A stretch of 47,766 nt of DNA from a virus: the IMG/VR virus record IMGVR_UViG_3300009100_000005; one strand, 5' to 3'. This document shows, one piece after another, positions 1,494-47,766 of this stretch. Below the pieces are notes generated by a model. The model was not told the origin of the DNA. It searched no databases and saw only the letters and a list, made by a program, of their open reading frames with translations. Each line of letters begins with the position of its first letter. Position 1 is the stretch's first letter. Made by a program: the position numbers and the translations under genes.

Positions 1494-4400
1494 ATGCCAC
1501 AAAATGTCTATAAAGCGCAGTTGCCGGTCGAGACTGTGCCACAACCATATCAGGCTCAAGTTCCGTATGAAGCACAATTACCATCTGATGCGGAACCGGC
1601 ACAAGGTTGGGGTGGCGCAGTCCTCTCCACTATTGCTCCGGCATTAGAGTTTATCTCGCGTCCTCAGTATGCCTCAGCCAAGTTTGCCGATAGCTTGGCT
1701 GATCCGTCGAAGTCTATCTTCGATGCGATGCTTGGAGCATTTCAGGAGTTTGTTAGTCCGAAGGATAAACTTTCATACTCTGAAGTTATTAGACGTAGAG
1801 CGCCAGAGTTTGCAAAGATGTATCCTAAAGCTACTTCTGTTATAGGTTTTATGGGAGATGTAGCATTTGATCCAACTACCTATTTAGGTATTGGGTTTGC
1901 TCGACAAGGTTTAACCGTAGGTCGTAAAGTTCTTACAGAGTTTGGTGAACAAACTTTGCACAGACTTGAGAAAGATATAGCACAGCAAGAAATATTGACT
2001 ACGGTTAAGAACAAAGTGAGAACCAATGTTATTGAAGCGGAACGGAAAGGTATACAAGCTCAATCTAGTTTGTTTACTAAGACAGAAGCTAGGCAAAAGT
2101 ATGGCGAGGTTCGTAGTTCGTTCTTACAGGAATTTGATGAACTAGCCAAAGATCCTGAACTTATGCGTAAGCTTCAGAATGGTACTATTGCTAGAAGTCG
2201 AATGAATGATTTGGCTCTTGATGAGTTAAACTCTGCTGGTGCTAAGGCTAAGTTTTCAAAGACTGGATTAGTACAATTGAAAAGACAGAAACCTGTCGAG
2301 TCTGTGATTCGTAAGCTTGCGCCAGAGGAAGTTACCGAAAAGGCAAGCCAGCGTATTCAAAAGTTAGCTGATCTTGATCCTGTTATTGCCTCGAAGTATT
2401 TTAAGCCGCGAGAGATTAACCTTCTTATCGGTCTACCATTCGGTAAACAGAAAGAAGTGTTGAGAATAATGGGTCTTGATTATCTCGACAGCAAGATTGA
2501 TGCTATCGTCAAGTTTAGGGATATGATTGTAGGAAAGAATATTCCTGTAATCAGTGCTGCTCTTGGCGCAGGCATTAAAGCTGGCAGAATGGCAAAGAAT
2601 GCTTTTGTCAGACCAAACGAAGAGCCATACAAGAATGCTATTACCGCTCTTGAGAAAGCTAAAAACTATAACGTAGGAGAAGTACATCGAGAGATTGTCA
2701 AACTATTTGAAGGTGTTGATGAAGCAGGCCGACAAAAGATCAGCAAGCTTGGCGTCGCTATTGACGATGAAAGCAGAGAAGTCGAAGCAAGGATAGGTAG
2801 AAGTCTAACTCAGACAGAAGCAGACAGAATCTATAGGGATGAGCTTTCTAAAGTAACTTTAGCTCCGAAGGAGATGGCTGCTTTTGCTGGTTTGACTCAA
2901 TCATATAAGACAGCAATGGAACTTGAGATGGAAGCTGGACTTCTCAAGAGTGCATTGCTGAATTATTATCCTCGTTATTACAAAGCTTTGGCTGATCCTG
3001 GCGAGATGTCTGTTCTTTTCAAAACTAAAAAAGGATTGTCAACCTCCCTTTCTTCGTCAAAGAAAAGGGAGTTTTTAACTTTACAAGAAGCCGAAGCTAA
3101 TGGATTTGTTCCTGAATTGGATGCTGCCAAGATATACGCTGCTCGTGTTATATCTTCTCGTCGTGCCTTGTCAGTAAAGCAATTTGAAGATTCCTTGAAC
3201 GGCATCTACAACTTGCCACAAGGTACAAAGATTGGTAGCAAAGCATTTAACAAGGTTATCCCTTCTGAAATCAAAGACGATATCAGAACGTTAGGAGAGT
3301 CAGTTTACCCTAGTGGTATGAACTCCACTGTTAATGACTTCTTGTACGCATATGATAGGTTGATGGGATATTTCAGACAAGGTGCAACTATCTTAAAGCC
3401 AGCGTTTGCTGTCAAGCAATTGATTAGCAATACTATGCAAATGGCTTTTGGTACTAATGCTAAAGCCTTTAAGTCTATGGATGGTAGATCATTCCTCGAT
3501 GCATCTATGCTTCTTATGGACTATTACAGAGGCAAACCAATAGAAGGATTACCGGGAGTATTTAAAAGTATCTTGAACAAACATTCTCTATCTGGCGAAG
3601 GTGGCGTTGATGCCATTCTTGCTGGTAGGGTAGCTTTAGAAAGGTTGATTAAAGAAGATGATATTCAATCGTTTGCGAAAGCTATTGAAATCATCCAACC
3701 GTCTGGTATGCGGTATAGCGGGGTTGACGTTGTTCGTCTTGGTAGAGAACACGGAATGGTTGTCAACTTTGACGCATCTGGCGAACAAATGTTCAGGCAA
3801 GTAGATGAGATACTTTCCTATGATCCAAAAAATAAAGTAACTTTATCGAAAGAATTGTTCAAATATTGGAAGATGTCTTCCACGTTTGAAACATATTCTC
3901 GGATGTCTGGTTTCATCCAAGGTTTGCGTATGGGCTATTCGCCTAAGCAAGCTGCCGCTGTAGTCGAAGATAATCTCTTTGATTATCTACACGGTCTGAC
4001 TAAGATAGAGAAAAGTTTTATCAGACGGGTGATGCCATTCTATTCGTTCCAACGCTTTGCTATACCGCAAGTGCTAAGAACGTTAGTACGCCAACCGGGC
4101 AATGCTGCTACTACCAACAAGATAGTTAACTTGATGGAGAAGTTAATTGTACCGGATGCTGAGAAGATGTCGGAGGCTGAAAGGGAAACATTTGGTGATA
4201 CATTACTTGTCGAACAGCCTAGACTATTCACTGGTTTCGACAAAGAAGGTAGAGCCAACTTCAATATCTTCAACAACTTCTCCCCACTAGATGCTTTGTC
4301 TCTTATGGTATATGACCAGAAGACAGATAAACTTGACCTAGAAAGAACAGTTCAAAGAACTTTCTTGGCTGCTCTTGCACCATACCTTAAGATTCCACTT

Positions 4401-4949
4401 GAGATGGCAATAGGCCAGAACTTCTTTACTGGCAAAGCTTTAGAGACTGGTGGTAGGATTGGCCAGTTGTCATACATCACCAATAATACGCCTCAGATTG
4501 TTAAAGACTTTATTGGTTGGGAAGACCGATATAATGAAAGGAGCGGCGAGACTAGAACATACATTAACCCTTACTTTGCACACGTAAGTATGTCTCTATT
4601 TCCTGCTTTACGCGAGTACATCAAACCGCTCGATGCTGAGACTTCTGCTTTAGACAAGGCAATGCAAATGATTGTTGGCAGTGTTAATGTCAAAGCCGAT
4701 TTGAAGGCTCAGTCAGAATGGCAGGCTATGACTAGCAAGGGTAAAGCACAAGAACTAAAGAGTAGCATACGAAAGTCTATGCTTATGGGAAGTGAGAACG
4801 AGTATGAAAAGAACTTGAGGGAATACCAAGAGTATATGACAATGCTCGAAGAGAGTAATAAGAGAAAACAAGCTGGTGATATCCGTGGTGCTGGTCTTGG
4901 TAATCAGATGATGAATGCCGAGCCTGCCATATTTCAAGAGCAAAGATAA
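1494..4949 (+). CDS. large (1151 aa) virion-associated protein, putative ejection/internal core protein
   Basis: Longest ORF and last gene of the structural block, as in the podovirus gene order; ATG 9 nt after motif 1470-1484; carries two in-frame motif copies (2848, 3832); no catalytic motif recognised. Confidence 0.8.
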   Translation: MPQNVYKAQLPVETVPQPYQAQVPYEAQLPSDAEPAQGWGGAVLSTIAPALEFISRPQYASAKFADSLADPSKSIFDAMLGAFQEFVSPKDKLSYSEVIRRRAPEFAKMYPKATSVIGFMGDVAFDPTTYLGIGFARQGLTVGRKVLTEFGEQTLHRLEKDIAQQEILTTVKNKVRTNVIEAERKGIQAQSSLFTKTEARQKYGEVRSSFLQEFDELAKDPELMRKLQNGTIARSRMNDLALDELNSAGAKAKFSKTGLVQLKRQKPVESVIRKLAPEEVTEKASQRIQKLADLDPVIASKYFKPREINLLIGLPFGKQKEVLRIMGLDYLDSKIDAIVKFRDMIVGKNIPVISAALGAGIKAGRMAKNAFVRPNEEPYKNAITALEKAKNYNVGEVHREIVKLFEGVDEAGRQKISKLGVAIDDESREVEARIGRSLTQTEADRIYRDELSKVTLAPKEMAAFAGLTQSYKTAMELEMEAGLLKSALLNYYPRYYKALADPGEMSVLFKTKKGLSTSLSSSKKREFLTLQEAEANGFVPELDAAKIYAARVISSRRALSVKQFEDSLNGIYNLPQGTKIGSKAFNKVIPSEIKDDIRTLGESVYPSGMNSTVNDFLYAYDRLMGYFRQGATILKPAFAVKQLISNTMQMAFGTNAKAFKSMDGRSFLDASMLLMDYYRGKPIEGLPGVFKSILNKHSLSGEGGVDAILAGRVALERLIKEDDIQSFAKAIEIIQPSGMRYSGVDVVRLGREHGMVVNFDASGEQMFRQVDEILSYDPKNKVTLSKELFKYWKMSSTFETYSRMSGFIQGLRMGYSPKQAAAVVEDNLFDYLHGLTKIEKSFIRRVMPFYSFQRFAIPQVLRTLVRQPGNAATTNKIVNLMEKLIVPDAEKMSEAERETFGDTLLVEQPRLFTGFDKEGRANFNIFNNFSPLDALSLMVYDQKTDKLDLERTVQRTFLAALAPYLKIPLEMAIGQNFFTGKALETGGRIGQLSYITNNTPQIVKDFIGWEDRYNERSGETRTYINPYFAHVSMSLFPALREYIKPLDAETSALDKAMQMIVGSVNVKADLKAQSEWQAMTSKGKAQELKSSIRKSMLMGSENEYEKNLREYQEYMTMLEESNKRKQAGDIRGAGLGNQMMNAEPAIFQEQR
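2848..2862. repeat. junction palindrome CTAAAGTAACTTTAG
   Basis: Exact; inside 1494-4949, read as KVTL. Confidence 0.95.
3832..3846. repeat. palindrome variant ATAAAGTAACTTTAT
   Basis: 13-nt core exact; inside 1494-4949, read as KVTL. Confidence 0.9.
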
Positions 4950-20775: not shown

Positions 20776-20994
20776 TTATCTCCCTTGATTGTCGAGGATC
20801 TTTTCCTCGATCCATTTTGGTGTATGACCAAGATGCCAATGTCCACAGAATTGGCAAATATATGGTCGCATCAACCCTTGCTCTGCTTTTCTCTTTCTTG
20901 CTTTAATTTGTGCCGATAATTCAGAAGAATATCTCGTTTTGCCTTCGCATTGCTTCTTCTTAAGAACTCGGCGTAACCTCCTTTTGCTTGCCAT
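20776..20994 (-). CDS. small basic zinc-binding protein
   Basis: 72 aa, Arg/Lys-rich, with CEGK...CQFCGHWH; GGAGG SD. Confidence 0.55.
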   Translation of the reverse strand: MASKRRLRRVLKKKQCEGKTRYSSELSAQIKARKRKAEQGLMRPYICQFCGHWHLGHTPKWIEEKILDNQGR

Positions 20995-21481
20995 CGTGAT
21001 CCTCCAATTCTGAGATTGTCACGTTTTTAAGATAAGCCGGTTTTACCTCATCTGCATCTACCCATTCGTCGTCTGATTCATTATATGGTTCAAGCCTCCT
21101 TTCTTGTACTGATTCTCTCTTAGGTCTAACATCATCAGATTCGTATGTAAGAGCATAACTAAGAGCGCGCCATCTATTCTCATCATTTATGATATCATAA
21201 TCAATCTTATCGCCAGTTCTCGTTTGAACTTCAACCAATGAAAGATATTCTGCAAACATACGTTCGCTATTAAAGTGGTGTATTAGATCGTAATGCTCAA
21301 ATGCCAATATTCTCTTGTTAATGCTCTGCCAGATTTCCTCTAAAGTTACTTTAGAAAGTTTTTCAAGTGCCCTTCTCATCTGATTGGTTACACTTGGTAT
21401 TTCAACCCGCCCTGCACACTTGGTACAGAGCGGGTTGTTATTCTCCCAACTATATTTCAAGCACAGAATGCATTTAAGCAT
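20960..21481 (-). CDS. hypothetical protein (N-terminal Cys4 zinc ribbon)
   Basis: CILC...CTKC; internal motif at 21340. Confidence 0.6.
   Translation of the reverse strand: MLKCILCLKYSWENNNPLCTKCAGRVEIPSVTNQMRRALEKLSKVTLEEIWQSINKRILAFEHYDLIHHFNSERMFAEYLSLVEVQTRTGDKIDYDIINDENRWRALSYALTYESDDVRPKRESVQERRLEPYNESDDEWVDADEVKPAYLKNVTISELEDHDGKQKEVTPSS
21340..21354. repeat. junction palindrome CTAAAGTTACTTTAG
   Basis: Exact; inside 20960-21481. Confidence 0.95.
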
Positions 21482-22262
21482 TCACTGTCTCAGCCACCTC
21501 CTTTGATTGATCTGTTGGTGTCTCTTCAAATTGTGCGATGTGTTCTTTGATTTCTTCGAGAACCTTCTCGCCTTCGACAACTGGATCAAACGACTCGACA
21601 ATCTCTTCAACCTTTAGCTTATCAACCTGTGGTTCTGGATCAGGATCACCCTGGCATATGCTGTCGTGTGGTTCGATAACCATCGGCACTGGCGTTGACT
21701 TAGCCAACCAACCACGTTGATAGGCAATACGGCGAGCTAAAGTTACTCTAGCGCCTTCTTCGTCGTTGTTGGTTTCTGGATACTGTTCCTTGGCCTCTTG
21801 CAAAGTTAGTTGCCGACAACCGCCGGTAATAATAGCTTGGCCATTTTCGTATGATAGCACGACTTTATAGCCCCTAGCTGTCATACCAAGGTCAACTATA
21901 TTTGCACCTTTGAGTGTGCAGGAATCCATTGAAATTTGACCGGCGTGAGTCTGCTCCCACTTAGTGTAGTCCAAGTTGCATTGTCGCATAACCGTACGAT
22001 ACGTTGGACAATGATTAAAAGTTGCATCCTCGAAATGGCAGGTATCGAAGATCGTTTTTTGAAGTCTAGCTTTGTTAAAGTTAGCCCTCGTAAAGACGCA
22101 GTTAGAAAACGTAATGCCTTCCAAATCGAAAAGGGTGAAGTCTACGTCTGTGAAATCAGTGATACCGTAGGCTAATGCTTCTTTCATCAAAGCGTTTCTG
22201 CTAATGGCATTTTTGTTCTCGAAAATCGTTTTAGGATTCTCGCCAAGGGTGTTGATTTTCAT
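21474..22262 (-). CDS. pentapeptide-repeat protein
   Basis: About 100 aa of tandem A(D/N)LxX-like pentads: FSNCVFTRANFNKARLQKTIFDTCHFEDATFNHC...CNLDYTKWEQTHAGQISMDSCTLKGANIVDL. Confidence 0.75.
   Translation of the reverse strand: MKINTLGENPKTIFENKNAISRNALMKEALAYGITDFTDVDFTLFDLEGITFSNCVFTRANFNKARLQKTIFDTCHFEDATFNHCPTYRTVMRQCNLDYTKWEQTHAGQISMDSCTLKGANIVDLGMTARGYKVVLSYENGQAIITGGCRQLTLQEAKEQYPETNNDEEGARVTLARRIAYQRGWLAKSTPVPMVIEPHDSICQGDPDPEPQVDKLKVEEIVESFDPVVEGEKVLEEIKEHIAQFEETPTDQSKEVAETVNA
21737..21751. repeat. degenerate copy CTAAAGTTACTCTAG
   Basis: One mismatch; inside the pentapeptide-repeat gene (RVTL). Confidence 0.6.
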
Positions 22263-22577: not shown

Positions 22578-22592
22578 CTAAAGTTACTTTAG
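22578..22592. repeat. junction palindrome CTAAAGTTACTTTAG
   Basis: Exact; its loop is the stop of 22584-22823; 9 nt upstream of ATG 22568. Confidence 0.95.
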
Positions 22593-22823
22593 TTCGTTCT
22601 TGTATACCGAATAAGCCGCATTGCCTTTGACAGATACTCTGTATATAGCAAATCTGCTATTCGATTTCATACTCACATACTTCGCTCGAAGTAGTGTGGA
22701 AAGGGCAGAACCCAAGTTAGCAGGTTTTGCCTTAGTTCGCAATTGCAAATCCGAGAAACTTAACTCATATTCATTCGTCAACTCTCTCAGAATTAAAGCT
22801 TTAAGACTATGTTTCAGAAGCAT
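22584..22823 (-). CDS. winged-helix DNA-binding protein, PadR/MarR-like (paralogue 3 of 3)
   Basis: SLKALILRELT...LSFSDLQ...LSTLLRAKYVSM...FAIYRVSVKGNAAY follows the PadR-like wHTH pattern; stop lies in the loop of motif 22578. Confidence 0.6.
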   Translation of the reverse strand: MLLKHSLKALILRELTNEYELSFSDLQLRTKAKPANLGSALSTLLRAKYVSMKSNSRFAIYRVSVKGNAAYSVYKNELK

Positions 22824-22835
22824 CTCTCGATCCTC

Positions 22836-23087
22836 CTAGAGTCCCATCTCTCTCAGATACGCCTGAAAAGCTTCATTGCCTCTTGGCGTTACCATATAGG
22901 CTGTTTGGTGACAACCTTTTACTTTCGAGATGAACTTCACTTCTATCAGTCTATCAATCGCTATCTGAAATAACCCTGGTTCGTGTCGTGCTAACTCATT
23001 CTGCATCTGATCAGAATATAGAGCGCCGTGACGAACCAAGTCTCTCAAGATATACGCTCGAAGGCTATGTTTGAGGGTTTCAGCCAT
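22836..23087 (-). CDS. winged-helix DNA-binding protein, PadR/MarR-like (paralogue 2 of 3)
   Basis: SLRAYILRDL...IDRLIEVKFISK...TAYMVTPRGNEAF; ATG 6 nt after motif 23094. Confidence 0.6.
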   Translation of the reverse strand: MAETLKHSLRAYILRDLVRHGALYSDQMQNELARHEPGLFQIAIDRLIEVKFISKVKGCHQTAYMVTPRGNEAFQAYLREMGL

Positions 23088-23093
23088 ATACTC

Positions 23094-23108
23094 CTAAAGT
23101 TACTTTAG
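23094..23108. repeat. junction palindrome CTAAAGTTACTTTAG
   Basis: Exact; holds the stop of 23105-23350; 6 nt upstream of ATG 23087. Confidence 0.95.
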
Positions 23109-23350
23109 TCCATCAATTGTCTGACGTACCATTCAAAGACAGCTTTGCCTTTGATAGTTATTCGATAGATTGTGAGTCTATCTACGTTTGGAACTTTGGT
23201 TATGTAACCATCGAAAAGCAATGAAAGTAGAGATTGGTAGATATTACCTTCTGTTACGTTGAGCAATCCTACCAACTCCATAAACGTAAGGTCATTGCCA
23301 TCTTTCAATGCTTTCAGAATAAAAACTTTAAGACTGTGGTTGCGAAGCAT
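23105..23350 (-). CDS. winged-helix DNA-binding protein, PadR/MarR-like (paralogue 1 of 3)
   Basis: SLKVFILKAL...GNIYQSLLSLLFDGYITK...LTIYRITIKGKAVF; stop lies in motif 23094. Confidence 0.6.
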   Translation of the reverse strand: MLRNHSLKVFILKALKDGNDLTFMELVGLLNVTEGNIYQSLLSLLFDGYITKVPNVDRLTIYRITIKGKAVFEWYVRQLMD

Positions 23351-24979: not shown

Positions 24980-25006
24980 CAAAAAAGATTTGGGATGTGA
25001 GGTGGG

Positions 25007-25295
25007 AACGGTACAGGCTAATCCGTGTGACATCTGCTAGAATGAGGCACGGATTAAACTCACCGATACCTGTACCGTTGCCCATAAAGGACATAGACAC
25101 CATAGGTTCCCTCGATTACAAATCTGCGCCGATCTGCGAATCGCACTATGGTGCCTATGCCAGTTATTACTAGCCGCACAGCCCCTGTTAATATAACCAT
25201 ACGGCTAGCACCTAATGGATGGTTGCAATCGCGCTGCCTGTCCCAAGACCGTGGATGTTTTAGCCCAAAGAATTAGCAGCCCGTCCAATCCATTA
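25007..25295. ncRNA. about 290-nt array of four long hairpins (candidate structured RNA or origin element)
   Basis: Pairings: AACGGTACAGG 25007-25017 / CCTGTACCGTT 25069-25079; TAATCCGTG 25019-25027 / CACGGATTA 25048-25056; 25089-25105 / 25146-25161; CTAGCCG 25170-25176 / CGGCTAG 25202-25208; TAATGGAT 25213-25220 / ATCCATTA 25288-25295. Confidence 0.35.
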
Positions 25296-25306
25296 AGATC
25301 GAATAA

Positions 25307-25321
25307 ATAAAGTTACTTTAG
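25307..25321. repeat. palindrome variant ATAAAGTTACTTTAG
   Basis: Core exact; non-coding. Confidence 0.9.
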
Positions 25322-25416
25322 TTGACAATCGCCTCGTAAGAGGATCACAGCTTGTGTCATACTGTGACTCGTCATTTCTAACCGAGGGTGAGGCGTTATC
25401 GTATCGCGCTTGCGAA

Positions 25417-25431
25417 CTAAAGTAACTTTAC
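25417..25431. repeat. palindrome variant CTAAAGTAACTTTAC
   Basis: Core exact; non-coding. Confidence 0.9.
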
Positions 25432-25486
25432 TATCCGAACGCAGTCTCCAAGCGTATCGTAATGATACACTAAAGATTAGAATTTG

Positions 25487-25537
25487 TCAACTACAAAATG
25501 TAGTATGTAGATTACTACATACACTATATGTTGTGGT
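25487..25537. repeat. about 51-nt dyad element, copy A (TCAACTACAAAAT...ACACTATATGTTGTGGT)
   Basis: Shares both ends with 27539-27590, including the identical 17-mer ACACTATATGTTGTGGT (25521-25537); the two ends are imperfect inverted repeats of each other. Confidence 0.7.
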
Positions 25538-25590
25538 ATTGTCCTTGCTGATCGTTTCCAGACCTTGCAAGTATCATCTACAGACGGCAT

Positions 25591-25696
25591 TTCTTTTGCG
25601 ATTAGAAGACCGTGGTAAGCTTTTTATACCGTTGCCTATGCCCTACTATGGACCAAATCAAATGGTATCGGTAACGTAAGAAAACAAAGGAGTTAT
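25591..25696 (+). ncRNA. about 105-nt conserved non-coding element, copy 2
   Basis: Same three blocks with 43-nt and 28-nt spacing, as at 5043-5148. Confidence 0.35.
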
Positions 25697-25758
25697 AGCC
25701 ACACTATGCAATGCATTATAATGAATATGGTAGTAATCTACATAGTACCAAAACTTGT

Positions 25759-25773
25759 CTAAAGTTACTTTAT
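25759..25773. repeat. palindrome variant CTAAAGTTACTTTAT
   Basis: Core exact; non-coding. Confidence 0.9.
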
Positions 25774-25840
25774 TTTCTAAGAGTCTTAGACCTCGCAAGG
25801 TTAGCTTATTGTCTAAGACCTGTCGGGAGGGTAATTTGGA

Positions 25841-25881
25841 CAAAAAAATAGGCTACCCACAACCCTCCTTGTAGGTAGCCT
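25841..25881 (-). terminator. Rho-independent terminator-like hairpin after gene 25891-26115
   Basis: AGGCTACC 25850-25857 pairs with GGTAGCCT 25874-25881; on the minus strand it is followed by ATTTTTTTG; the 16-nt loop makes it weak. Confidence 0.45.
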
Positions 25882-25890
25882 TGAGTTTGC

Positions 25891-26115
25891 TCATCGGACA
25901 TCTTTGATCGAACATATCCAATCGTTTTCGTTTTTGATGTATACGAAATAAACACCAAACGAAAATCGGTAAGACGTAGCAAAAAACCATTCTATGCCAA
26001 GCGCTGTCGCTATTGCAAGAGGATAAGTAACCACGCCATTTTCAAAGTAGTAAATCTTGAAGTTTTGGACATCACAAACCAGATTGCCTTCGACGATTTT
26101 TAGGTCGAAATCCAT
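25891..26115 (-). CDS. hypothetical protein
   Basis: 74-aa ORF with a GAGGGA SD; motif 26135 lies upstream; terminator-like hairpin lies downstream. Confidence 0.5.
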   Translation of the reverse strand: MDFDLKIVEGNLVCDVQNFKIYYFENGVVTYPLAIATALGIEWFFATSYRFSFGVYFVYIKNENDWICSIKDVR

Positions 26116-26134
26116 ATCATTTTTCCCTCAAAAA

Positions 26135-26149
26135 CTAAAGTAACTTTAT
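26135..26149. repeat. palindrome variant CTAAAGTAACTTTAT
   Basis: Core exact; between the ParB-like stop and ATG 26115. Confidence 0.9.
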
Positions 26150-26194
26150 AAAATGAGGGATGGAGTGTATACCGCACACTCCATCCCAATTGAT

Positions 26195-27391
26195 TTAGCT
26201 TTCCTGATCGTCCTCGTACTCCCACGAATTCAACTCGCCGTCGGATTCGTCGTCGTCGTGTGCGTCAGGATGCGTCCGCTCTAATTCAGCAGTATCGCCC
26301 TTGACGGTCGGAGGATTAGTAAGCTTGTCCATTTCCTTCTGTTCATTCGCAGCATTCAAAGCCGCCGCGCGCCGTTTATCGGCGAGGATTTCTTTCTTTG
26401 AACGGAAATCAATCGTTTTGATCCATTCCAAATCCTTACAAATAGCAAGAACTTCGGATTTGGAATAATGCTCTTTACCTAACAGAGCGCCGATAAACAT
26501 CTTGAATGGCAATGGAATCTGAATACCTACTTCGGACGCAAACATCTTTTTCAAGTCGTCACGGCTGAAAGCAGATTTCGGCGTTCCTTTGCCGCCGTCA
26601 GGTGAAGCCACTTGCTTCATATGTGAACGGACGGCATTGCGCGAAAGAGCCTTACCTTGTGTAACCATTTCATCGAGGATAGGCTGAACTTTTGCTTTCA
26701 GCTTGTTATCGTCGATTTTTTTGGTGGTTGGATCACGGAACGCATCAAGAAAGTCTTTTTGCGCAAACTGATCAGAACAAGTGTCGAGGGAAATAATCTC
26801 ATCCTTAACCAGGCTTGCCAAGTATGGCGACTCGTCAACACGCGCAACCTTTGAAATCCACATTTCAGATTTCTTGAGCAATTGCGCGATTTCCTTGTTT
26901 TTCTTGTTCATACCGCGAAATCCTCTGATATACGCGGCAATGGACATAAAAGACTCTTCCACGGTCTTATCATTGATGATAAATTGGGAAGCGAGAAGCT
27001 TATCCATTTCATCCTCTTTGATAACGCAAACGGGAAAGGTCTTATCAAGGAATAGTTGCTCACGTCTGCGAGCAACGTCTACCAGACCGCGACGTTGACG
27101 ACCGGAAATCAGGTAGAAATTACCATCTTTCCTCAGAAAACCTTGCGTCGGTACGCGAATGTAATTCTCTTTTATGTCGAGATACATTTCGGTAAGGTTA
27201 TCGTAAACCTCTTTCTTCAAAGACATTTTAGAGTCTTTGTCGAAATACATACGCTCCCAAATGGAAACGTACTCATCGCGTTCACTGCCAAGCTGCGGAA
27301 TGACATCCGTAGCAGATTTGACATTATCAAACGGAACGTTTACGAAATCGCCCGGTCGAATGATATTCTTTTGCGTCTTTTCTGTAGCCAT
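26195..27391 (-). CDS. ParB/KorB-like protein (ParB N-terminal domain plus HTH)
   Basis: Track ORF trimmed to ATG 27391 (AAGGAG SD); YLISGRQRRGL resembles the ParB GxRR box; NKEIAQLLKKSEMWISKV resembles the ParB HTH; acidic C-terminus. Confidence 0.55.
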   Translation of the reverse strand: MATEKTQKNIIRPGDFVNVPFDNVKSATDVIPQLGSERDEYVSIWERMYFDKDSKMSLKKEVYDNLTEMYLDIKENYIRVPTQGFLRKDGNFYLISGRQRRGLVDVARRREQLFLDKTFPVCVIKEDEMDKLLASQFIINDKTVEESFMSIAAYIRGFRGMNKKNKEIAQLLKKSEMWISKVARVDESPYLASLVKDEIISLDTCSDQFAQKDFLDAFRDPTTKKIDDNKLKAKVQPILDEMVTQGKALSRNAVRSHMKQVASPDGGKGTPKSAFSRDDLKKMFASEVGIQIPLPFKMFIGALLGKEHYSKSEVLAICKDLEWIKTIDFRSKKEILADKRRAAALNAANEQKEMDKLTNPPTVKGDTAELERTHPDAHDDDESDGELNSWEYEDDQES

Positions 27392-27417
27392 TTCTATTCT
27401 CCTTAAGGAAAAAAGGA

Positions 27418-27432
27418 CTAAAGTAACTTTAT
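27418..27432. repeat. palindrome variant CTAAAGTAACTTTAT
   Basis: Core exact; 26 nt upstream of the ParB-like ATG 27391. Confidence 0.9.
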
Positions 27433-27468
27433 TATTTGCTCTCAGGCACAAGCGTATGCGCCTTGCAA

Positions 27469-27483
27469 ATAAAGTAACTTTAG
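27469..27483. repeat. palindrome variant ATAAAGTAACTTTAG
   Basis: Core exact; upstream of the ParB-like gene. Confidence 0.9.
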
Positions 27484-27538
27484 TCAAATTGTCAAATATC
27501 TGATCTAAAAAAGAGCATACGCTCTAATTTAGTGGCTG

Positions 27539-27607
27539 TCAACCACAAAATATGGTAGTGTAAACAATCGTTGACACTATATGTTGTGGTGTAAACAATC
27601 GTTTACA
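27539..27607. repeat. about 52-nt dyad element, copy B, plus GTGTAAACAATCGTT direct repeat
   Basis: TCAACCACAAAAT at 27539-27551; 17-mer at 27574-27590; GTGTAAACAATCGTT at 27558-27572 and 27589-27603; the second copy forms the palindrome TGTAAAC-aatc-GTTTACA (27590-27607). Confidence 0.7.
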
Positions 27608-27695
27608 CATACATACTCTGTGATTAAATTGATAAAGAACTGTGAGCAAACCACTTTATTCAACACAGGCAAGTTTGCTCTATCCTGTGGACGCC

Positions 27696-27710
27696 CTAAA
27701 GTTACTTTAG
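27696..27710. repeat. junction palindrome CTAAAGTTACTTTAG
   Basis: Exact; non-coding. Confidence 0.95.
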
Positions 27711-27877
27711 AGCGTTTCTGTTTAACGCCAAAACAACGGAAAGCTAATCATAAGCTTTACCTTGCCAATTCTAAACCATTTGGTATAAGTCTTGCTAGGC
27801 TTAAGAAAATAGTTCTTAACTGGCGCGGTACGATAGCCTTTGTTCATAGGCACATAGAAATGGTTAAGCATATTTCC

Positions 27878-28132
27878 TCATTCGTCAAATGCGAAATCTT
27901 CGCCATTTATGGCGTAGACAGCGCGAAACGTTTTGATTGTAAATCCATCTAACAGATAATCATTTACCATATCTTGTGTAACGTGGTAACTCTTATCGTC
28001 AGACGAATTACGCTCTAATACAATAAGCTTAACGGCAGACTCGAATTCAATGAAGTATTCGACGCCGTTACGCTCGCGGCATCTGATAGAAATAGCTTCT
28101 GCCATTTCTTTTTCTATTTTTGGCATAAGCAT
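27878..28132 (-). CDS. hypothetical protein (first gene of the leftward block)
   Basis: 84-aa ORF with an AAGGAT SD. Confidence 0.5.
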   Translation of the reverse strand: MLMPKIEKEMAEAISIRCRERNGVEYFIEFESAVKLIVLERNSSDDKSYHVTQDMVNDYLLDGFTIKTFRAVYAINGEDFAFDE

Positions 28133-28409
28133 ATCCTTTCGTTTTTCAATGTTAAAAAATAGTGGGAGTGATGATACTTCATCGTGTTAGCGATCTACTC
28201 AATCTATCTAAGCTAGTAGACTCAATTGTCAGATACGCATCAGATACTTCGCGTTAATCACTTCCCACTAAATATCAACGAGCGCTATTCGCGCTTTCGC
28301 GCGACAAACGGGTTATCCAAGCTATTGCTTTTTGTTGTCCCGCTTGCACAATGGTAATAAGCAACGTATGTGCCACAATATGAAATCATTGATAGCAATA
28401 GACTTAGGA

Positions 28410-28424
28410 CTAAAGTTACTTTAT
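28410..28424. repeat. palindrome variant CTAAAGTTACTTTAT
   Basis: Core exact; non-coding divergent region. Confidence 0.9.
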
Positions 28425-28582
28425 TTCTGGCCTGTTATTACACCATATCGTATGCTCATTTAGCTATCAAATGAACAAACACAGCTTATCATCAATAAAC
28501 ACAAATAGTTACAGAATATACCAAATGGTAGATTATGTACACCAAATAGTTTAGAGAAAATAAATATATGAGAATAAAGGAA

Positions 28583-28597
28583 ATAAAGTAACTTTAT
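28583..28597. repeat. palindrome variant ATAAAGTAACTTTAT
   Basis: Core exact; non-coding AT-rich region. Confidence 0.9.
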
Positions 28598-28910
28598 CGA
28601 ATGCTTATAAGGATAGTGGGATTGACACAAATGTTTCATAGATGAGATTCTACAGGTGCGCGGTAAGACATACCAAGTTAATTGTTATGTTTATTAGCTT
28701 TATGGTGTATATGGTCGTATGCGTCAAGTGGAGTGTACCATAAGATTAACATATGTAACTGTAATAAAACAAGTAAGATAACCCATTAGATATAGCTACT
28801 TTATTGCTAATATGATGCTATGTAGTAAGCTATATGATGTAACATAAAACTCATTATCAGACGCAACTAATAGATCATATAATAATGAAGAAAGTAGACA
28901 TCTACATAGG

Positions 28911-28925
28911 GTAAAGTAACTTTAG
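28911..28925. repeat. palindrome variant GTAAAGTAACTTTAG
   Basis: Core exact; non-coding. Confidence 0.9.
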
Positions 28926-28973
28926 TACCATAATAATGAAGCCACTACCCATTGACCCATCACCCCTTCTTTG

Positions 28974-29216
28974 ATGTTGACCATCGCTGATATCCCACCA
29001 AAAAAAAATTATATGAGAAAGACAAGTTTAAAGAAGTATGATCTATTAGGTAAAAGATTATCTGATCTAACATTTGAAGAATATGCTTACTTTGCTTCAC
29101 TCCCACTAGAGAAGAGAAGACAAATAGTATTAGATAATTACTTACTACTATATCCTAATACATTATATGCTAATCAAATAATAATGGATAGAAGTAAGAA
29201 GAAAAAGATAAAGTAA
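28974..29216 (+). CDS. hypothetical lysine-rich protein (uncertain)
   Basis: 80-aa ORF in the AT-rich region; no clear SD; stop TAA is the loop of motif 29208-29222. Confidence 0.3.
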   Translation: MLTIADIPPKKNYMRKTSLKKYDLLGKRLSDLTFEEYAYFASLPLEKRRQIVLDNYLLLYPNTLYANQIIMDRSKKKKIK

Positions 29217-29222
29217 CTTTAT
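29208..29222. repeat. palindrome variant ATAAAGTAACTTTAT
   Basis: Core exact; its loop is the stop of ORF 28974-29216. Confidence 0.9.
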
Positions 29223-29353
29223 GGAAAAGTGTTAATAAATTATTCTTCCTTAATAGTCCCACCTTTAATCCTTCCACATTAGAATTCCAAATAATTAGTA
29301 ATTTACACACTGTATGTATGGTGTGATAGTTTATTTATATAAGCCATACGAGT

Positions 29354-29368
29354 CTAAAGTAACTTTAG
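29354..29368. repeat. junction palindrome CTAAAGTAACTTTAG
   Basis: Exact; non-coding. Confidence 0.95.
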
Positions 29369-29386
29369 GTTTTTATTCGTTTTTCC

Positions 29387-29401
29387 CTAAAGTTACTTTA
29401 T
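29387..29401. repeat. palindrome variant CTAAAGTTACTTTAT
   Basis: Core exact; 18 nt after copy 29354. Confidence 0.9.
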
Positions 29402-29438
29402 TCCTTTCGTTGAGGGTTTAGGTTTTGCGCACTGGTAT

Positions 29439-29476
29439 GGAGAGGGAAGATTACAAGTTTTCTCTCTCCTATTTTT
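29439..29476 (+). terminator. terminator/attenuator-like hairpin just upstream of the first late-block gene
   Basis: GGAGAGGGAA 29439-29448 pairs with TTCTCTCTCC 29460-29469 (10 bp, including one G-U that exists only on the plus strand), followed by TATTTTT. Confidence 0.45.
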
Positions 29477-29491
29477 CTAAAGTTACTTTAG
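29477..29491. repeat. junction palindrome CTAAAGTTACTTTAG
   Basis: Exact; 11 nt upstream of ATG 29503. Confidence 0.95.
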
Positions 29492-29502
29492 AGGGAGGTA
29501 AT

Positions 29503-29832
29503 ATGACAAATAGTGGAATAGAAGCTAGATTGAATCTACTTCACGATCAAGTTCTGGTGTTAAAGAGAGACAATCCTAAGATACTAGAACATTTGACCAA
29601 TATTGACAAACAGTTAACTGAGATATGGTCAAAGATAATTCAATTGCAATTTGACGTTGCAAGAATCCGTGGAGGTATACCAGGGAGAGCTTACGTTCAC
29701 AACTTCACTCTGGTAGACAACGATGAAGCGAAGAAACTTTCTAAAGGGATTGTTGACCGCGACACTGAGTTCAATACTCCCACTAAAGAAGCGTACAACC
29801 GTCAACGTAGCGAAAGTGATCCAGAATGCTAA
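29503..29832 (+). CDS. hypothetical coiled-coil protein
   Basis: Track ORF trimmed to ATG 29503, 11 nt after motif 29477-29491 with a GGGAGG SD. Confidence 0.6.
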   Translation: MTNSGIEARLNLLHDQVLVLKRDNPKILEHLTNIDKQLTEIWSKIIQLQFDVARIRGGIPGRAYVHNFTLVDNDEAKKLSKGIVDRDTEFNTPTKEAYNRQRSESDPEC

Positions 29833-29945
29833 TGACGAGTTTTACGTTCAAAGAATAAGTCCAATAGTATGGACGGAAAAAGGTGTTTATTTTTACTATA
29901 ACTCGTTTATCGCAGGTAAACCATCAGGAAGGATGAATAATATCA

Positions 29946-30089
29946 ATGGATAACGAAGAACGAAAGATGCAGCAATGCAAGATAGATCAGTTGCAAAAGC
30001 TTATTGATAGACTGGAATGGGTACAAATTCTGATGTCAGTATATTGTGGGTTAATTACTTTGCTACTGATCATACTGATTCAGAAATAA
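29946..30089 (+). CDS. small C-terminally anchored membrane protein (47 aa, below track cutoff)
   Basis: My translation is MDNEERKMQQCKIDQLQKLIDRLEWVQILMSVYCGLITLLLIILIQK; stop TAA lies in the left arm of motif 30086-30100. Confidence 0.35.
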   Translation: MDNEERKMQQCKIDQLQKLIDRLEWVQILMSVYCGLITLLLIILIQK

Positions 30090-30100
30090 AGTTACTTTAG
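30086..30100. repeat. palindrome variant ATAAAGTTACTTTAG
   Basis: Core exact; fused AGGAG, 8 nt upstream of ATG 30109. Confidence 0.9.
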
Positions 30101-30108
30101 GAGAGAAT

Positions 30109-30345
30109 ATGCCACTTGATCTTTACAATAAAAAAACATCAGAACAAATGAGATGTGGATTCTTTTGGAGAAAAGGTAAGCTTGTTGGTTTTATCGGTGT
30201 TGAGAGTACGATGAATCCAACATTAAGAGGATTCTACACATTTACTGATATGGATCAAGTTAAAGAGTTAAGAACATTTCTGGAAGAATGGGAAAAAGAG
30301 TATAAGGAGAAAAATGAGCGAACCACATCTGCCAATTCCGCCTGA
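30109..30345 (+). CDS. hypothetical protein
   Basis: 78-aa ORF; ATG 8 nt after motif 30086-30100 with a fused AGGAG. Confidence 0.65.
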   Translation: MPLDLYNKKTSEQMRCGFFWRKGKLVGFIGVESTMNPTLRGFYTFTDMDQVKELRTFLEEWEKEYKEKNERTTSANSA

Positions 30346-30982
30346 AGGTTATAGATATTATGTTGCTACCATATTGGGAGTACCATTAAGAGGTATCGAG
30401 ATTTATCAGATAAAAGACCCAGGATATGCTGAGCCTATTACACAATTGGTCGTGCGCGACTTAACGTCTTTGGCCAAGTTGCATCAAGCTTTGTTCAGCT
30501 TGAATATGACTGTTACTAAAGAAAAAGAAGAAGCCAAAAAGATGGGTATCTCTCTTAGTGAGTACCACGCTGTATTGTGTAAGCAAGATGCTGAAAGAAT
30601 GCAGAAAGAATGGGAGGAAGAAGATACTAAAGTTACTTTAGAAGAACATATCAAGCATCTCGAAGATCACTTTGAATTGGAGCGGGAGAGACAAAAGAAA
30701 TTCGCAGCTATAGCTTTCCCACTATTCAATGAGTTATGGATTGCCAGTGTTCGTGGTCCAGAACAACTAATCAAAGCTTTTGGTGTTAGTGAAGAAGTCT
30801 ATGATGAATTGAAGAAAGCGTCTGGAGAAGGCGATACCAATTACGAAGAATATGCCAGAGGCAAAGAAGTCGAGTTTGAGATATACTATAAGCGTGTCCC
30901 TATTGTGATTGAGAACAAAGCATTAGGAAGACAGGTAATTCCAATTTACAGATATGGAAGACTTCCCACTACAAAAATATGA
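30314..30982 (+). CDS. hypothetical protein
   Basis: 222-aa ORF with an AAGGAG SD; internal motif at 30627. Confidence 0.65.
   Translation: MSEPHLPIPPEGYRYYVATILGVPLRGIEIYQIKDPGYAEPITQLVVRDLTSLAKLHQALFSLNMTVTKEKEEAKKMGISLSEYHAVLCKQDAERMQKEWEEEDTKVTLEEHIKHLEDHFELERERQKKFAAIAFPLFNELWIASVRGPEQLIKAFGVSEEVYDELKKASGEGDTNYEEYARGKEVEFEIYYKRVPIVIENKALGRQVIPIYRYGRLPTTKI
30627..30641. repeat. junction palindrome CTAAAGTTACTTTAG
   Basis: Exact; inside 30314-30982. Confidence 0.95.
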
Positions 30983-31433
30983 TAATTATGACGCGCTTGA
31001 ACGCAAGAGATTGGAAGTGGAGATTGCTTCCGCTGTATCCGATAACCAAGTCTCCACTGCGAATGATATAGCAGATCAGTTTGGCATTGATGTTATGGAC
31101 GCTATACGTCTTTTGGGAAGCGATGAATTCTTGGAGACTGTCACGCTGTTCACAAATGCCAAGTTGACTTTGTTATGGCACGGCGAGGCTATTAACAAGT
31201 TACGCGATATTCTCAGAACCGGCGATAATAAAGAGAAGCTCTCTGCGATCAATACTTTGGGCAAGATCAAAGGCGCATTGAAAAGCGGAGTCGAACTCAA
31301 TCTCAATCTGGAAAGGTTGCTGGACGAAGCACACGATAAACCAGTTACTAAAGTTACTTTAGATGAAGACGACGACGTAACAGACTTGTTTCCTGATGAA
31401 AAAGGAACTTACGGTAGAAAGGATCGCAGATGA
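30954..31433 (+). CDS. putative terminase small subunit (HTH protein)
   Basis: N-terminal HTH-like STANDIADQFGIDVMDAIRLL; lies two genes upstream of the large terminase; internal motif at 31348; assignment is positional. Confidence 0.45.
   Translation: MEDFPLQKYDNYDALERKRLEVEIASAVSDNQVSTANDIADQFGIDVMDAIRLLGSDEFLETVTLFTNAKLTLLWHGEAINKLRDILRTGDNKEKLSAINTLGKIKGALKSGVELNLNLERLLDEAHDKPVTKVTLDEDDDVTDLFPDEKGTYGRKDRR
31348..31362. repeat. junction palindrome CTAAAGTTACTTTAG
   Basis: Exact; inside 30954-31433. Confidence 0.95.
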
Positions 31434-36911: not shown

Positions 36912-36926
36912 CTAAAGTTACTTTAG
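36912..36926. repeat. junction palindrome CTAAAGTTACTTTAG
   Basis: Exact; ends 1 nt before tRNA-Tyr. Confidence 0.95.
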
Positions 36927-36927
36927 T

Positions 36928-37013
36928 GCCATTGTTGGGAAGTTGGTATCCCGACCCGTCTGTAAAACGGGTGTTCTTGACAGGACGTGAGAGTTCGAGT
37001 CTCTCCAATGGCA
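36928..37013 (+). tRNA. tRNA-Tyr (anticodon GTA), class II with long variable arm
   Basis: Acceptor GCCATTG / CAATGGC; D-arm GGGA-AGTTGGTA-TCCC; anticodon arm CCCGT-CTGTAAA-ACGGG; 17-nt variable arm; T-arm GAGAG-TTCGAGT-CTCTC; discriminator A; no encoded CCA; starts 1 nt after motif 36912-36926. Confidence 0.85.
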
Positions 37014-37037
37014 TAGGGCGAATGCTTTAGGGAGTAC

Positions 37038-37214: not shown

Positions 37215-37229
37215 CTAAAGTAACTTTGG
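37215..37229. repeat. degenerate copy CTAAAGTAACTTTGG
   Basis: One mismatch; followed by TGCC, as is copy 36912. Confidence 0.6.
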
Positions 37230-37239
37230 TGCCCTCTCG

Positions 37240-37254
37240 CTAAAGTTACTTTAG
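37240..37254. repeat. junction palindrome CTAAAGTTACTTTAG
   Basis: Exact; 23 nt upstream of ATG 37278; enclosed by the CCCTCTC/GAGAGGG stem. Confidence 0.95.
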
Positions 37255-46708: not shown

Positions 46709-47683
46709 ATGGCGTTGAATGCCTTTCAAACAGAAGTCCAAAAGCTTGCCAAAAAGCTAGGACTGCAAGGCTCTGACGAACAGAGAGTTTACGCCAGTCC
46801 TGAGTATAGCCAATTGGTCGGCAAGTATTTTGGCCAGATTGACTTACCGGCAGGAGTTACCGAAGATATGGTAACTTTCAGAACTCCTTTCGGTATTGAG
46901 TATAAAGATCAATATGGCTACATCCATAAGCTCGAAAGGAATATGGATGCCAGATCGCCACAACTTGGTCAAGTTAATGAGAAGACTACTGATCGCCCTG
47001 CCATACTCCCACTAGAGAAGACAAACCCTGGGATAGCAGAAGCGATGAAGCTTTTGACTGAGAGAACATCTCAGCCTATGTCGTCAGGATTGCCTAAGCT
47101 TGATCCAGATACTCTGGCAGAATTGCAAGCTATAGCTAAGGGCAATCAAGATCAGCTTGACCAGTTGTTCGAGAGGGGCAGAGGCGATCTGATTACTGGT
47201 TTGTATGGTAGTGGCAATAACCGTTCTACTCTGGCTAATGATGCTTCTGCTAGGTTACTGCAAGAACAAGGTATAGTTCAATCTGATAAACTTGGTAAGG
47301 ATGCCGAAAGAGAATTGGCAGCTAGGGCAGGATCGAGAGATGCAGCAATAAACTTGAGAGGTCAAGATATTCAATACTTGATGGGATTGCTTGGTCAAGA
47401 TACTGCTCGTGCTGTTCCTTCTGCTCAATTGTCTCAACAGCAATCTGAATTGAGAGAGAACTCAAGACAGTTCGATTTACAATATTTGTTAGAGCAAGAG
47501 AAGATGAAGCAGCAACAGCGTAGTGGTCTTATGAGTGCATTGGCTGGAATTGCTAGTGCTGGTCTATCGTTGATACCGGGTGTTGGTCCAATCTTAGGTG
47601 CTGCTTCTAGCTCTATCTTTGGTGGATTAACCGGAGGAAAAGCCGGACGACCGCCAGTAGGTGGCGATGGTGGGTACGGCTAA
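46709..47683 (+). CDS. hypothetical protein with Gly-rich hydrophobic C-terminus; putative internal virion protein
   Basis: 324-aa ORF; ATG 9 nt after motif 46685-46699 with GGAGG; the C-terminal SGLMSALAGIASAGLSLIPGVGPILGAASS segment runs into the terminal overlap. Confidence 0.65.
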   Translation: MALNAFQTEVQKLAKKLGLQGSDEQRVYASPEYSQLVGKYFGQIDLPAGVTEDMVTFRTPFGIEYKDQYGYIHKLERNMDARSPQLGQVNEKTTDRPAILPLEKTNPGIAEAMKLLTERTSQPMSSGLPKLDPDTLAELQAIAKGNQDQLDQLFERGRGDLITGLYGSGNNRSTLANDASARLLQEQGIVQSDKLGKDAERELAARAGSRDAAINLRGQDIQYLMGLLGQDTARAVPSAQLSQQQSELRENSRQFDLQYLLEQEKMKQQQRSGLMSALAGIASAGLSLIPGVGPILGAASSSIFGGLTGGKAGRPPVGGDGGYG

Positions 47684-47766
47684 AACTAAAGTAACTTTAG
47701 TAGGAGAATGATATGCAAAATGAAGAAGAGCTGAGACAAATCCTAGCTGGATTACAAGAAAGGCAA
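47644..47766. repeat. terminal overlap, identical to 1-123
   Basis: Same 123 nt as the window start; genome unit is 47,643 bp. Confidence 0.9.
47686..47700. repeat. junction palindrome CTAAAGTAACTTTAG
   Basis: Exact; the same physical copy as 43-57 (terminal overlap). Confidence 0.95.

Follow-up and report, generated by a model that had tools for sequence, protein, structure and literature searches.

A dense palindrome array accompanies an orphan ParB-like gene in a phage genome and resembles dispersed KorB operators

Results

The locus and its genome

We analysed the virus record IMGVR_UViG_3300009100_000005 (the window, 47,766 nucleotides (nt)), concentrating on the interval 25307–30100, where copies of a short palindrome surround a gene for a ParB/KorB-like protein. 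Bases 1–123 recur exactly at 47644–47766. With this 123-bp terminal duplication counted once, the sequence measures 47,643 bp, and the window thus represents a complete phage genome, either circularly closed or terminally redundant. A rightward gene block extends from ~29.5 kb past the end of the sequence to 4.9 kb, encoding TerL, portal, major capsid and other structural proteins. On the leftward block (~27.4 to 5.3 kb) are genes for a family-A DNA polymerase, a primase-helicase and a Cas4-like exonuclease, as well as for SPFH and pentapeptide proteins, together with numerous small open reading frames (ORFs). No integrase, repressor, ParA or RNA polymerase was recognised in Pfam/PHROG scans of the window ORFs (none of the ~75 ORFs scanned being ParA-like), nor was a dioxygenase, methyltransferase, kinase or glycosyltransferase detected in scans of the window; the replicon is apparently a lytic phage. 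Its major capsid protein is at best 24–29% identical to those of Mx8, Mx9, Ruegeria 45A6 and similar phages, so there is no close cultured relative. Neither a DNA similarity search with 25000–31000 nor tblastn with the ParB-like protein gave a match in 50,697 phage records.

An essentially invariant palindrome at almost every gene boundary

The palindrome is a 13–15-bp site, written (C)TAAAGTWACTTTA(G), with the core AAAGTWACTTT (single positions given below are those of the first base of the 15-mer). Exact matches to the core number 68 in the window, where shuffled sequences would give 0.04; the copy at 45/47688 is doubled by the terminal duplication, leaving 67 unique copies, close to the figure of about 66 in an earlier note on this DNA. 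Tolerating one mismatch adds only 5 matches, with 1.85 expected by chance, and the 13-mer is therefore essentially invariant.

Of the 67 copies, around 36 precede a start codon by no more than 40 nt, many of them touching the Shine–Dalgarno (SD) sequence; ~15 fall only inside ORFs and 16 are non-coding. On either strand the motif has a stop in two of its three frames, and intragenic copies always use the sole open frame (K-V-T-L). Sites are found mostly at gene junctions, where, given these stops, a fixed 15-mer is tolerated; long genes carry sites in-frame within them. Almost every gene boundary has a site, and there is approximately one per 0.7 kb across the chromosome. Spacing is more even than random (coefficient of variation 0.60; largest gap 1,883 bp versus 3,424 bp expected, P<0.001), and the central A/T tracks local AT skew (p=0.003), not the sense strand. 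Within the structural block, the copy at 36912–36926 ends at the 5′ end of tRNA-Tyr (36927–37014). Two more copies lie 200 nt downstream of this tRNA (37215–37254), of which that at 37215 is alone in having a broken 13-mer (TTTGG).

Site density in the interval 25307–30100 is one per 320 bp versus one per 824 bp elsewhere, a 2.6-fold enrichment (Poisson p=0.004). The fifteen copies that the earlier note placed here all start where it had put them (Table 1), and its remark that most are followed by neither an SD nor an ORF agrees with our count, ~10 of the 15 having no start codon within 40 nt.

Table 1. Coordinates of the ParB-like gene, the palindromes and the associated signals
Feature	Position	Strand	Context
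Genome-wide set of TAAAGTWACTTTA	1–47643		67 unique copies (motif count)
Orphan ParB/KorB-like protein, 398 aa	26195–27391	−	First gene of the leftward early block
Palindrome ATAAAGTTACTTTAG	25307–25321		Non-coding; abuts TTGACA (25322–25327), an arrangement also found in L119, L120 and L121
Palindrome CTAAAGTAACTTTAC	25417–25431		Non-coding
Palindrome CTAAAGTTACTTTAT	25759–25773		Non-coding
Palindrome CTAAAGTAACTTTAT	26135–26149		Between the terminator after the ParB-like gene and a 74-aa ORF; 19 nt upstream of the ORF start
Strong bidirectional terminator-like hairpin	26157–26187		Directly after the ParB-like stop codon
Palindrome 2 (putative operator 2)	27418–27432		5′ untranslated region, 26 nt upstream of the ParB-like start codon; position kept in L119, L120 and L121
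Palindrome 1 (putative operator 1)	27469–27483		6 nt downstream (−) of the conserved GATATTTGACAAT box (TTGACA 27490–27495, −)
Sigma-70-type promoter, TTGACA-17-TATGCT	27514–27542	−	Reads into the ParB-like gene; 10/12 match
Two tandem 31-nt repeats with TTGACA (27571–27576)	27544–27605	+	Candidate rightward promoter or regulatory repeats
Palindrome CTAAAGTTACTTTAG	27696–27710		Non-coding
Palindrome CTAAAGTTACTTTAT	28410–28424		Non-coding
Palindrome ATAAAGTAACTTTAT	28583–28597		Non-coding; A/T on both flanks
Palindrome GTAAAGTAACTTTAG	28911–28925		Non-coding
Palindrome ATAAAGTAACTTTAT	29208–29222		Overlaps the stop of a small ORF, 28971–29216 (+), kept in L119 and L120
Palindrome CTAAAGTAACTTTAG	29354–29368		Non-coding
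Palindrome CTAAAGTTACTTTAT	29387–29401		Non-coding; 18 nt after the copy at 29354–29368
Palindrome CTAAAGTTACTTTAG	29477–29491		Followed by GGGAGG and, 11 nt on, the ATG of the first gene of the rightward block (29503–29832)
Palindrome ATAAAGTTACTTTAG	30086–30100		8 nt before the ATG of ORF 30109–30345

Conserved promoter architecture upstream of the ParB-like gene

The order of elements upstream of the ParB-like gene is kept in five lineages, the window and its relatives L119–L122: TTGACA-17/18-TAnnnT, the GATATTTGACAAT box and, six bases later, palindrome 1. Palindrome 2 comes ~38 nt further on in the window, L119, L120 and L121, and after it an SD and ATG, while the L122 layout matches just to palindrome 1, in L122's own palindrome variant. 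The expectation of the earlier note that early promoters would lie in this divergent region is borne out by these sigma-70-like promoters, conserved in all five lineages. A 17-mer in the 31-nt repeat region (ACACTATATGTTGTGGT, at 27574) recurs at 25521–25537; one terminator-like hairpin (29439–29469) precedes the palindrome at 29477, and the interval also holds a further strong one (25850–25881) and three small conserved ORFs. Judged by this organisation, 25307–30100 is the divergent early control region, and nowhere else are the sites as dense.

Partly overlapping the interval, 24980–25890 is a 0.9-kb stretch of the leftward block without an ORF, whose organisation is kept in L119, L120 and L121. 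It contains three palindromes, a 19-nt inverted repeat (25500–25518 / 25730–25748) and CTATGTAG-type motifs, and may hold promoters, a small RNA or an origin. An Rfam scan reported tRNA-Tyr only, with no known RNA family in the non-coding interval.

Flank variants are not a separate class of site

The canonical CT…AG flanks are missing from 21 copies, strongly concentrated in the interval (12/15 versus 9/52 outside; Fisher p=1.4e-5) and in non-coding DNA (11/16 versus 10/51 elsewhere; p=4.8e-4). The earlier note had put 12 of 20 such variants in the interval; the 12 stands and the total is 21. Its remark that these copies often extend the dyad to ATAAAGTWACTTTAT is overstated, as A/T occurs on both sides at just 28583 and 29208 in the interval and 3832 elsewhere. 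The A/T-flanked copies do not form a functional class of their own, the flanks being unconserved at orthologous sites in L119, L120 and L121. In L121, for example, the two sites before the ParB-like gene have flanks GT..AG and CT..AT, against CT..AT and AT..AG in the window; in L119 and L120 both sites have CT..AG. Flank variation is concentrated in non-coding AT-rich DNA (33–35% G+C), and two start-associated variants (23928 and 32088) simply create an ATG overlapping the motif. We regard the A/T-flanked copies as the ordinary 13-bp site, its outer positions relaxed where the DNA is non-coding and AT-rich.

Probably a site in DNA rather than RNA

The sole hairpin that the palindrome could form as RNA has six A/U-rich pairs and a 3-nt loop (−1.9 kcal/mol). 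Copies within one genome are all identical, with no compensatory pair variation, and their orientation is irrelevant. Between lineages, the ±1 positions changed together (T..A to C..G) in both of the phage groups compared below; because this change lies in the unpaired loop, a two-fold site in double-stranded DNA is favoured, and the palindrome is probably read by a dimeric sequence-specific protein rather than acting as an RNA element. A duplex site also agrees better with the central A/T tracking AT skew, with copies in front of a tRNA gene and in promoter DNA, and with those of a third phage type (65 kb), which sit beside terminators.

It is very unlikely, in our estimation, that the palindrome instead works at the RNA level, as a short hairpin at the 5′ edge of cistrons that an RNA-binding protein or endoribonuclease would use for processing of polycistronic transcripts or translation control, comparable to the start-associated sequences of Cluster K mycobacteriophages. 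The copies 0–40 nt upstream of start codons and at SD sequences would suit such a role, as would the copy ending exactly at the tRNA-Tyr 5′ end and the many copies in the second phage group that lie 0–6 nt before an ATG without an SD, but the 16 copies in non-coding control DNA, the 15 in ORFs and those of a 65-kb phage, 50–65 nt from starts, would not. Likewise, the changes at ±4, ±5 and ±6 would keep the stem paired, but the hairpin is very weak, the ±1 loop positions changed symmetrically twice, no compensatory pairs occur among the copies of a genome, and the central base tracks AT skew instead of the sense strand.

Other assignments were rejected. An intrinsic terminator or stable RNA hairpin is at odds with the 6-bp A/U-rich stem, its low stability and the lack of a T-run; true terminator-like hairpins are separate features. 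A bidirectional promoter (TAAAGT as −10) would be destroyed at A-11 and T-7 by the variants TGAAGT and TAAAGC, and the changes are symmetric. For a phage RNA-polymerase promoter, no polymerase gene was found.

A highly divergent member of the ParB fold

The ORF at 26195–27391 (−), its ISGRQRR box and its helix-turn-helix (HTH) are all present as first described, and the assignment to the ParB family made with them stands at a remote level: Pfam gives no match, whereas PHROG 1033 ('ParB-like partition protein') matches at 1e-4 and structure searches agree. Homologues are rare (8 among 1.84 billion representative proteins), with no new members from a second search using the family profile. When two weak hits (one a canonical ParB) are included, the profile matches PDB chains of ParB, Spo0J, Noc and KorB at 1e-13 to 1e-6; once they are left out it reaches Spo0J at best, at E=0.29, and the sequence evidence alone for a ParB assignment is thin.

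We modelled the protein with AlphaFold2 from nine family members, excluding canonical ParB (pLDDT 72.6). Foldseek against the PDB places KorB, Noc, ParB or Spo0J in all of the top 30 positions (KorB 8qa9 first, 2.3e-5), with sulfiredoxins next. TM-scores are low (0.2–0.4), which we attribute to multidomain geometry; the alignments span 240–260 columns, covering the N-domain and DNA-binding domain of KorB, Noc and ParB. The ParB/Srx-type N-domain carries G97-R98-Q99-R100-R101, in which the canonical GERR box is altered to GRQRR (E to R98, first R to Q99). G97, R98, R100 and N140 are invariant in the family, in alignment with the G and second R of GERR and the N of ENxQR. The HTH (approximately residues 165–186, NKEIAQLLKKSEMWISKVARV) aligns with the ParB HTH in HMM alignments. 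With the predicted structure as guide, we accept the protein as an orphan of the ParB fold, very divergent and equipped with an HTH. The LG[KR]GL motif for ParA binding is missing from its N-terminus (MATEKTQKNIIRPGDF). The partition or centromere-like role raised in the earlier note is unlikely in its classical form, because no ParA gene was found.

Palindrome variants among relatives

The contigs encoding homologues at 87–90% and 45% identity (L121, L119 and L120) keep TAAAGTWACTTTA at the same density, with 9 copies in 4.3 kb, 25 in 13.9 kb and 18 in 8.3 kb. Homologues at 26–33% identity are found on contigs with other iterated palindromes in 8–13 copies: TAAAGCWGCTTTA in L122 (8 copies in 3.8 kb), TAGAGTWACTCTA in L123 (13 in 7.3 kb) and TGAAGTWACTTCA in L124 (10 in 8.1 kb). 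Each lineage variant is one symmetric change away from the palindrome of the window. We refer to the window and these relatives as group 1.

A motif scan led to a 41-kb genome, IMGVR_UViG_3300029913_000052, whose gene junctions carry the same 13-mer 20 times. What it has in common with the window is a 25%-identical DNA polymerase and a small zinc (Zn)-ribbon protein, besides a remote ParB-like protein. The latter (361 aa) has a Pfam HTH_ParB match (2.7e-7) and a borderline ParB_N, and is related to the window family at profile level only (hhalign 82%, E 1e-5). Our HMMER screen missed its gene, which we found by ORF reading and confirmed with Pfam and hhalign; HMMER negatives in the ParB-like family are accordingly weak. 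Homologues of the 361-aa protein (43–62% identity) are encoded by phages of ~43 kb (group 2), and all five sampled contigs carry iterated palindromes: three have the same 13-mer, L168 has TAAAGCWGCTTTA and L166 has CAAAGTWACTTTG. L165 and L166 bear different variants although they come from one sequencing run (SRR29078200). In two phage groups, then, two ParB-fold families are accompanied by a single palindrome family. The earlier suggestion that a phage ParB-like protein uses dispersed palindromic sites gains real support from this comparison, through the symmetric lineage changes and the second ParB-family gene with the same palindrome family.

The 13-mer also has a wider distribution. IMGVR_UViG_3300035686_000005 (L164, L171), an unrelated 65-kb phage contig, has 23 identical copies in 21.7 kb. 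Several come right after hairpin-plus-T-run terminators, ~50–65 nt upstream of the next start, and some are followed by TATAAT-like boxes at promoter distance. In a few bacteria, paired copies with a spacing of 28–40 bp occupy the gap between a MarR-like gene and its divergent neighbour: in Nocardioidaceae (L132/L147/L154/L156; 66–67% G+C) and in Pedobacter (L139), the L132 pair coming after a TTGACA box. These look like ordinary operator pairs, and other protein folds can therefore read the 13-mer. Conversely, the Gordonia phage DirtyBoi, taken as a negative control, encodes ParB-like nuclease-domain proteins and has no iterated palindrome, so the association is not general to all phage ParB-like genes.

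Further features of the genome

Three tandem winged-helix paralogues of 79–83 aa (22584–22823, 22836–23087 and 23105–23350, all −) match Pfam HTH_34 and one another (E ~1e-8); each is preceded by a palindrome, and L121 has one homologue. The Zn-ribbon protein of the window (20776–20994, −) is small and basic, with the motif YxCxxCGxWHL and matches to PHROG 14788/15216, and is also present in IMGVR_UViG_3300029913_000052, L166, L167 and L169. Within ORF 1494–4949, an intragenic palindrome at 2848 is followed by GGAG and, 11 nt on, an in-frame ATG (2848–2873), a possible internal start that would give a product of 691 aa within the 1151-aa ORF.

Mosaicism between the window and L119 is strong: TerL and portal are ~90% identical (TerL 90%), the ParB-like protein and neighbouring early genes 43–62% (ParB-like 45%), and the palindrome is identical in both all the same. 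Pentapeptide-repeat proteins occur in both phage groups, and group 2 also has Kyano_Gp96 and Pam3_Gp34 domain matches (window 21474–22262, −; IMGVR_UViG_3300029913_000052 25809–26189 and 25437–25712; L166/L167); together these hint at cyanobacterial hosts.

Discussion

Candidate readers of the site

We put the chances about even that the palindromes are KorB-operator-like binding or loading sites for the phage's ParB-like protein. The points in its favour are the co-occurrence of protein and palindrome in two families, the two sites behind the gene's own promoter, the ability of ParB dimers to bind short palindromes and the likeness of the site to the KorB operator. Several observations weigh against it. 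Pfam returns no match for the window protein to ParB_N (PF02195) or HTH_ParB (PF17762), even at E≤1. CTP binding is uncertain given the deviation of the GxxR box from GERR, and no KorA/TrbA or ParA/IncC partner was recognised in Pfam/PHROG scans, in which most small ORFs stay unannotated. The relatives were found with ParB-like protein searches, and so the co-occurrence is partly built into the sampling. The 65-kb phage has no ParB-like gene within the 24 kb of it that were read. A recognition-helix code (AGT versus AGC) was tried and rejected, being inconsistent across the two families. Finally, these families are not linked by HMMER and yet go with the same 13-mer, and TAAAGCWGCTTTA occurs in both groups.

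A common host reader would explain this last point more simply than parallel evolution, since divergent ParB-like families share both the identical 13-mer and the variant TAAAGCWGCTTTA. More broadly, a different protein may read the duplex site (a host dimeric protein, one of the winged-helix paralogues or the Zn-ribbon protein), with the ParB-like gene a bystander or in another role; we regard this as a tentative possibility, on the unlikely side. The identical 13-mer in three phage groups with almost no detectable proteins in common would be expected of such a reader, and so would TAAAGCWGCTTTA in L122 of group 1 and L168 of group 2 and the absence of clear recognition-helix covariation in the ParB-like proteins. 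The paired 13-mers that serve as ordinary operators beside the MarR-like winged-helix genes of L132 and L139 also speak for it. The winged-helix paralogues of the window have no counterpart in group 2, which we count in favour of the ParB-like protein. The Zn-ribbon protein is the sole protein besides DNA polymerase detectably common to both groups, but matches widespread PHROG families of unknown function. As for a host protein, a genome scan gave isolated pairs only and no motif-enriched host genome, and the different variants of L165 and L166 within one run fit a phage-encoded reader better. The architecture and core of the site, moreover, resemble a ParB-family operator, that of KorB.

The sites could also mark DNA for a chemical or physical event, whether ParB-directed base hypermodification (as in 5mYOX-ParB systems), site-specific nicking or, as short boundary sequences, the promotion of module exchange between co-infecting phages, although we consider this very unlikely. 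Phage ParB homologues activate thymidine dioxygenases (PMC13229309), and the ParB/Srx fold is found in nuclease and modification contexts (PMC12704722), but 5mYOX-associated ParBs lack the HTH that the window protein has, and no modification enzyme of the classes scanned for was detected in the window. Sites at nearly all gene boundaries and the mosaicism between the window and L119 (TerL 90% versus ParB-like 45%) would suit exchange boundaries; with a site at almost every junction, however, breakpoints are indistinguishable from junctions, and the comparable repeats of Cluster O mycobacteriophages have not been linked to rearrangements.

How a ParB-like reader might act

If the ParB-like protein is the reader, it would be made early, from the conserved sigma-70-type promoter that opens the leftward block, and would bind the two sites in its own leader, giving autoregulation. 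It would then bind, or load as a ParB-type clamp at, approximately one site per 0.7 kb over the whole chromosome, and could serve as a KorB-like global regulator or stoperator-like roadblock, or could coat and organise the phage DNA. The even spacing, the in-frame copies and the indifference to promoter or start distance suggest selection on chromosome coverage, not on single promoters, and such coverage fits a ParB-type loader or spreader or a genome-wide roadblock.

A bolder version, which we hold to be doubtful, is that an orphan HTH-bearing protein of the ParB-CTPase fold loads at about one site per gene and coats or organises a whole lytic-phage chromosome, for transcriptional gating, compartmentalisation or protection against host defences. 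Protein and site would then form an ancient module, frozen by its many sites, whose specificity shifts one symmetric base pair at a time in at least two phage groups.

Comparison with known systems

Dispersed palindromic operators of a ParB-family regulator (KorB) and iterated phage palindromes (Cluster O) are already known. Our literature search found neither the combination of an orphan ParB-like protein with dense palindromes, nor a density of ~1 site per gene, nor five natural site variants over two protein families, and a search for the motif string gave no relevant paper.

Palindromes bound by a ParB-family HTH protein are familiar as the parS sites of ParABS systems, including the dispersed sites of plasmid prophages such as N15. 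The phage differs from these in having neither ParA nor a ParA-binding N-terminal motif, and in its 67 sites, against 1–10, that are not clustered at one locus.

Two mycobacteriophage systems have dense 13-bp motifs of another kind. The stoperators of Cluster A (L5 gp71) are, like the sites here, dozens of near-identical 13-bp sequences in short intergenic gaps, and serve genome-wide silencing by one phage protein. Stoperators, however, are asymmetric, oriented with transcription and read by the immunity repressor of a temperate phage, whereas the phage analysed here has a perfect palindrome and a candidate reader from the ParB family, and no integrase or immunity module was found in it. The start-associated sequences (SAS) of Cluster K are likewise a conserved 13-bp motif immediately upstream of many start codons; according to PMC4351075 they are asymmetric and strictly linked to starts, 3–8 bp upstream of them, in contrast to a perfect palindrome of which 16 copies are non-coding, 15 intragenic and one before a tRNA.

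The distribution of sites resembles the palindromes of Cluster O more closely than the Cluster A stoperators. Cluster O phages (Corndog) carry a 17-bp repeat, TGTTCGGNNNCCGAACA, in more than 30 copies with invariant arms, dyad symmetry and unknown function (PMC4351075). As in the window, copies are intergenic, near gene 5′ ends and inside genes, and orientation is meaningless; a ParB-like domain protein is encoded, with no integrase or parA (PMC4351075). Differences are a 7-3-7 architecture versus 7-1-7 here, a lower density, copies not closely tied to start codons and an unrelated host and phage type. The authors drew no connection between these repeats and the ParB-like protein, and lineage covariation has not been reported.

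KorB of the IncP plasmid RK2 is a ParB-family HTH protein whose own operator is a perfectly conserved 13-bp palindrome with one central base (TTTAGCSGCTAAA). Its sites are dispersed over the replicon, some at promoters and some far from them, and it controls its own expression; here there are 67 identical 13-mers, two of them downstream of the conserved promoter of the ParB-like gene. The window protein has KorB as its best Foldseek match, and the variant TAAAGCWGCTTTA has the KorB core AGCNGCT. The contrasts are as marked. There are ~67 sites in 47.6 kb, versus about a dozen in 60 kb on RK2 (a figure carried over from the earlier note; we did not find the number in PMC11790492). Phage sites are mostly at gene junctions, touching SD sequences, not at promoters. 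The phage is without ParA (IncC) and a recognisable KorA/TrbA; its protein has no Pfam KorB match, negligible sequence similarity to KorB and an altered GERR; and an apparently lytic phage stands against a plasmid. The KorB operator (TTTAGCGGCTAAA) nevertheless has the same 6-1-6 architecture as the phage site, around the AGCNGCT core (PMC11790492).

Orphan ParB-fold proteins are common on phages and mobile elements, and for hardly any of them is a role or a DNA target known (PMC12704722). In the present case the sequence itself shows a candidate target, the 67 identical sites, along with five natural specificity variants over two protein families. Were a host factor the reader, unrelated phages would have converged on dense arrays of one host protein's site. 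If the ParB-like protein is the reader, the KorB paradigm would extend from a dozen plasmid operators to a whole-virus array, with a possible explanation for the palindromes of Cluster O, whose phages also encode a ParB-like protein.

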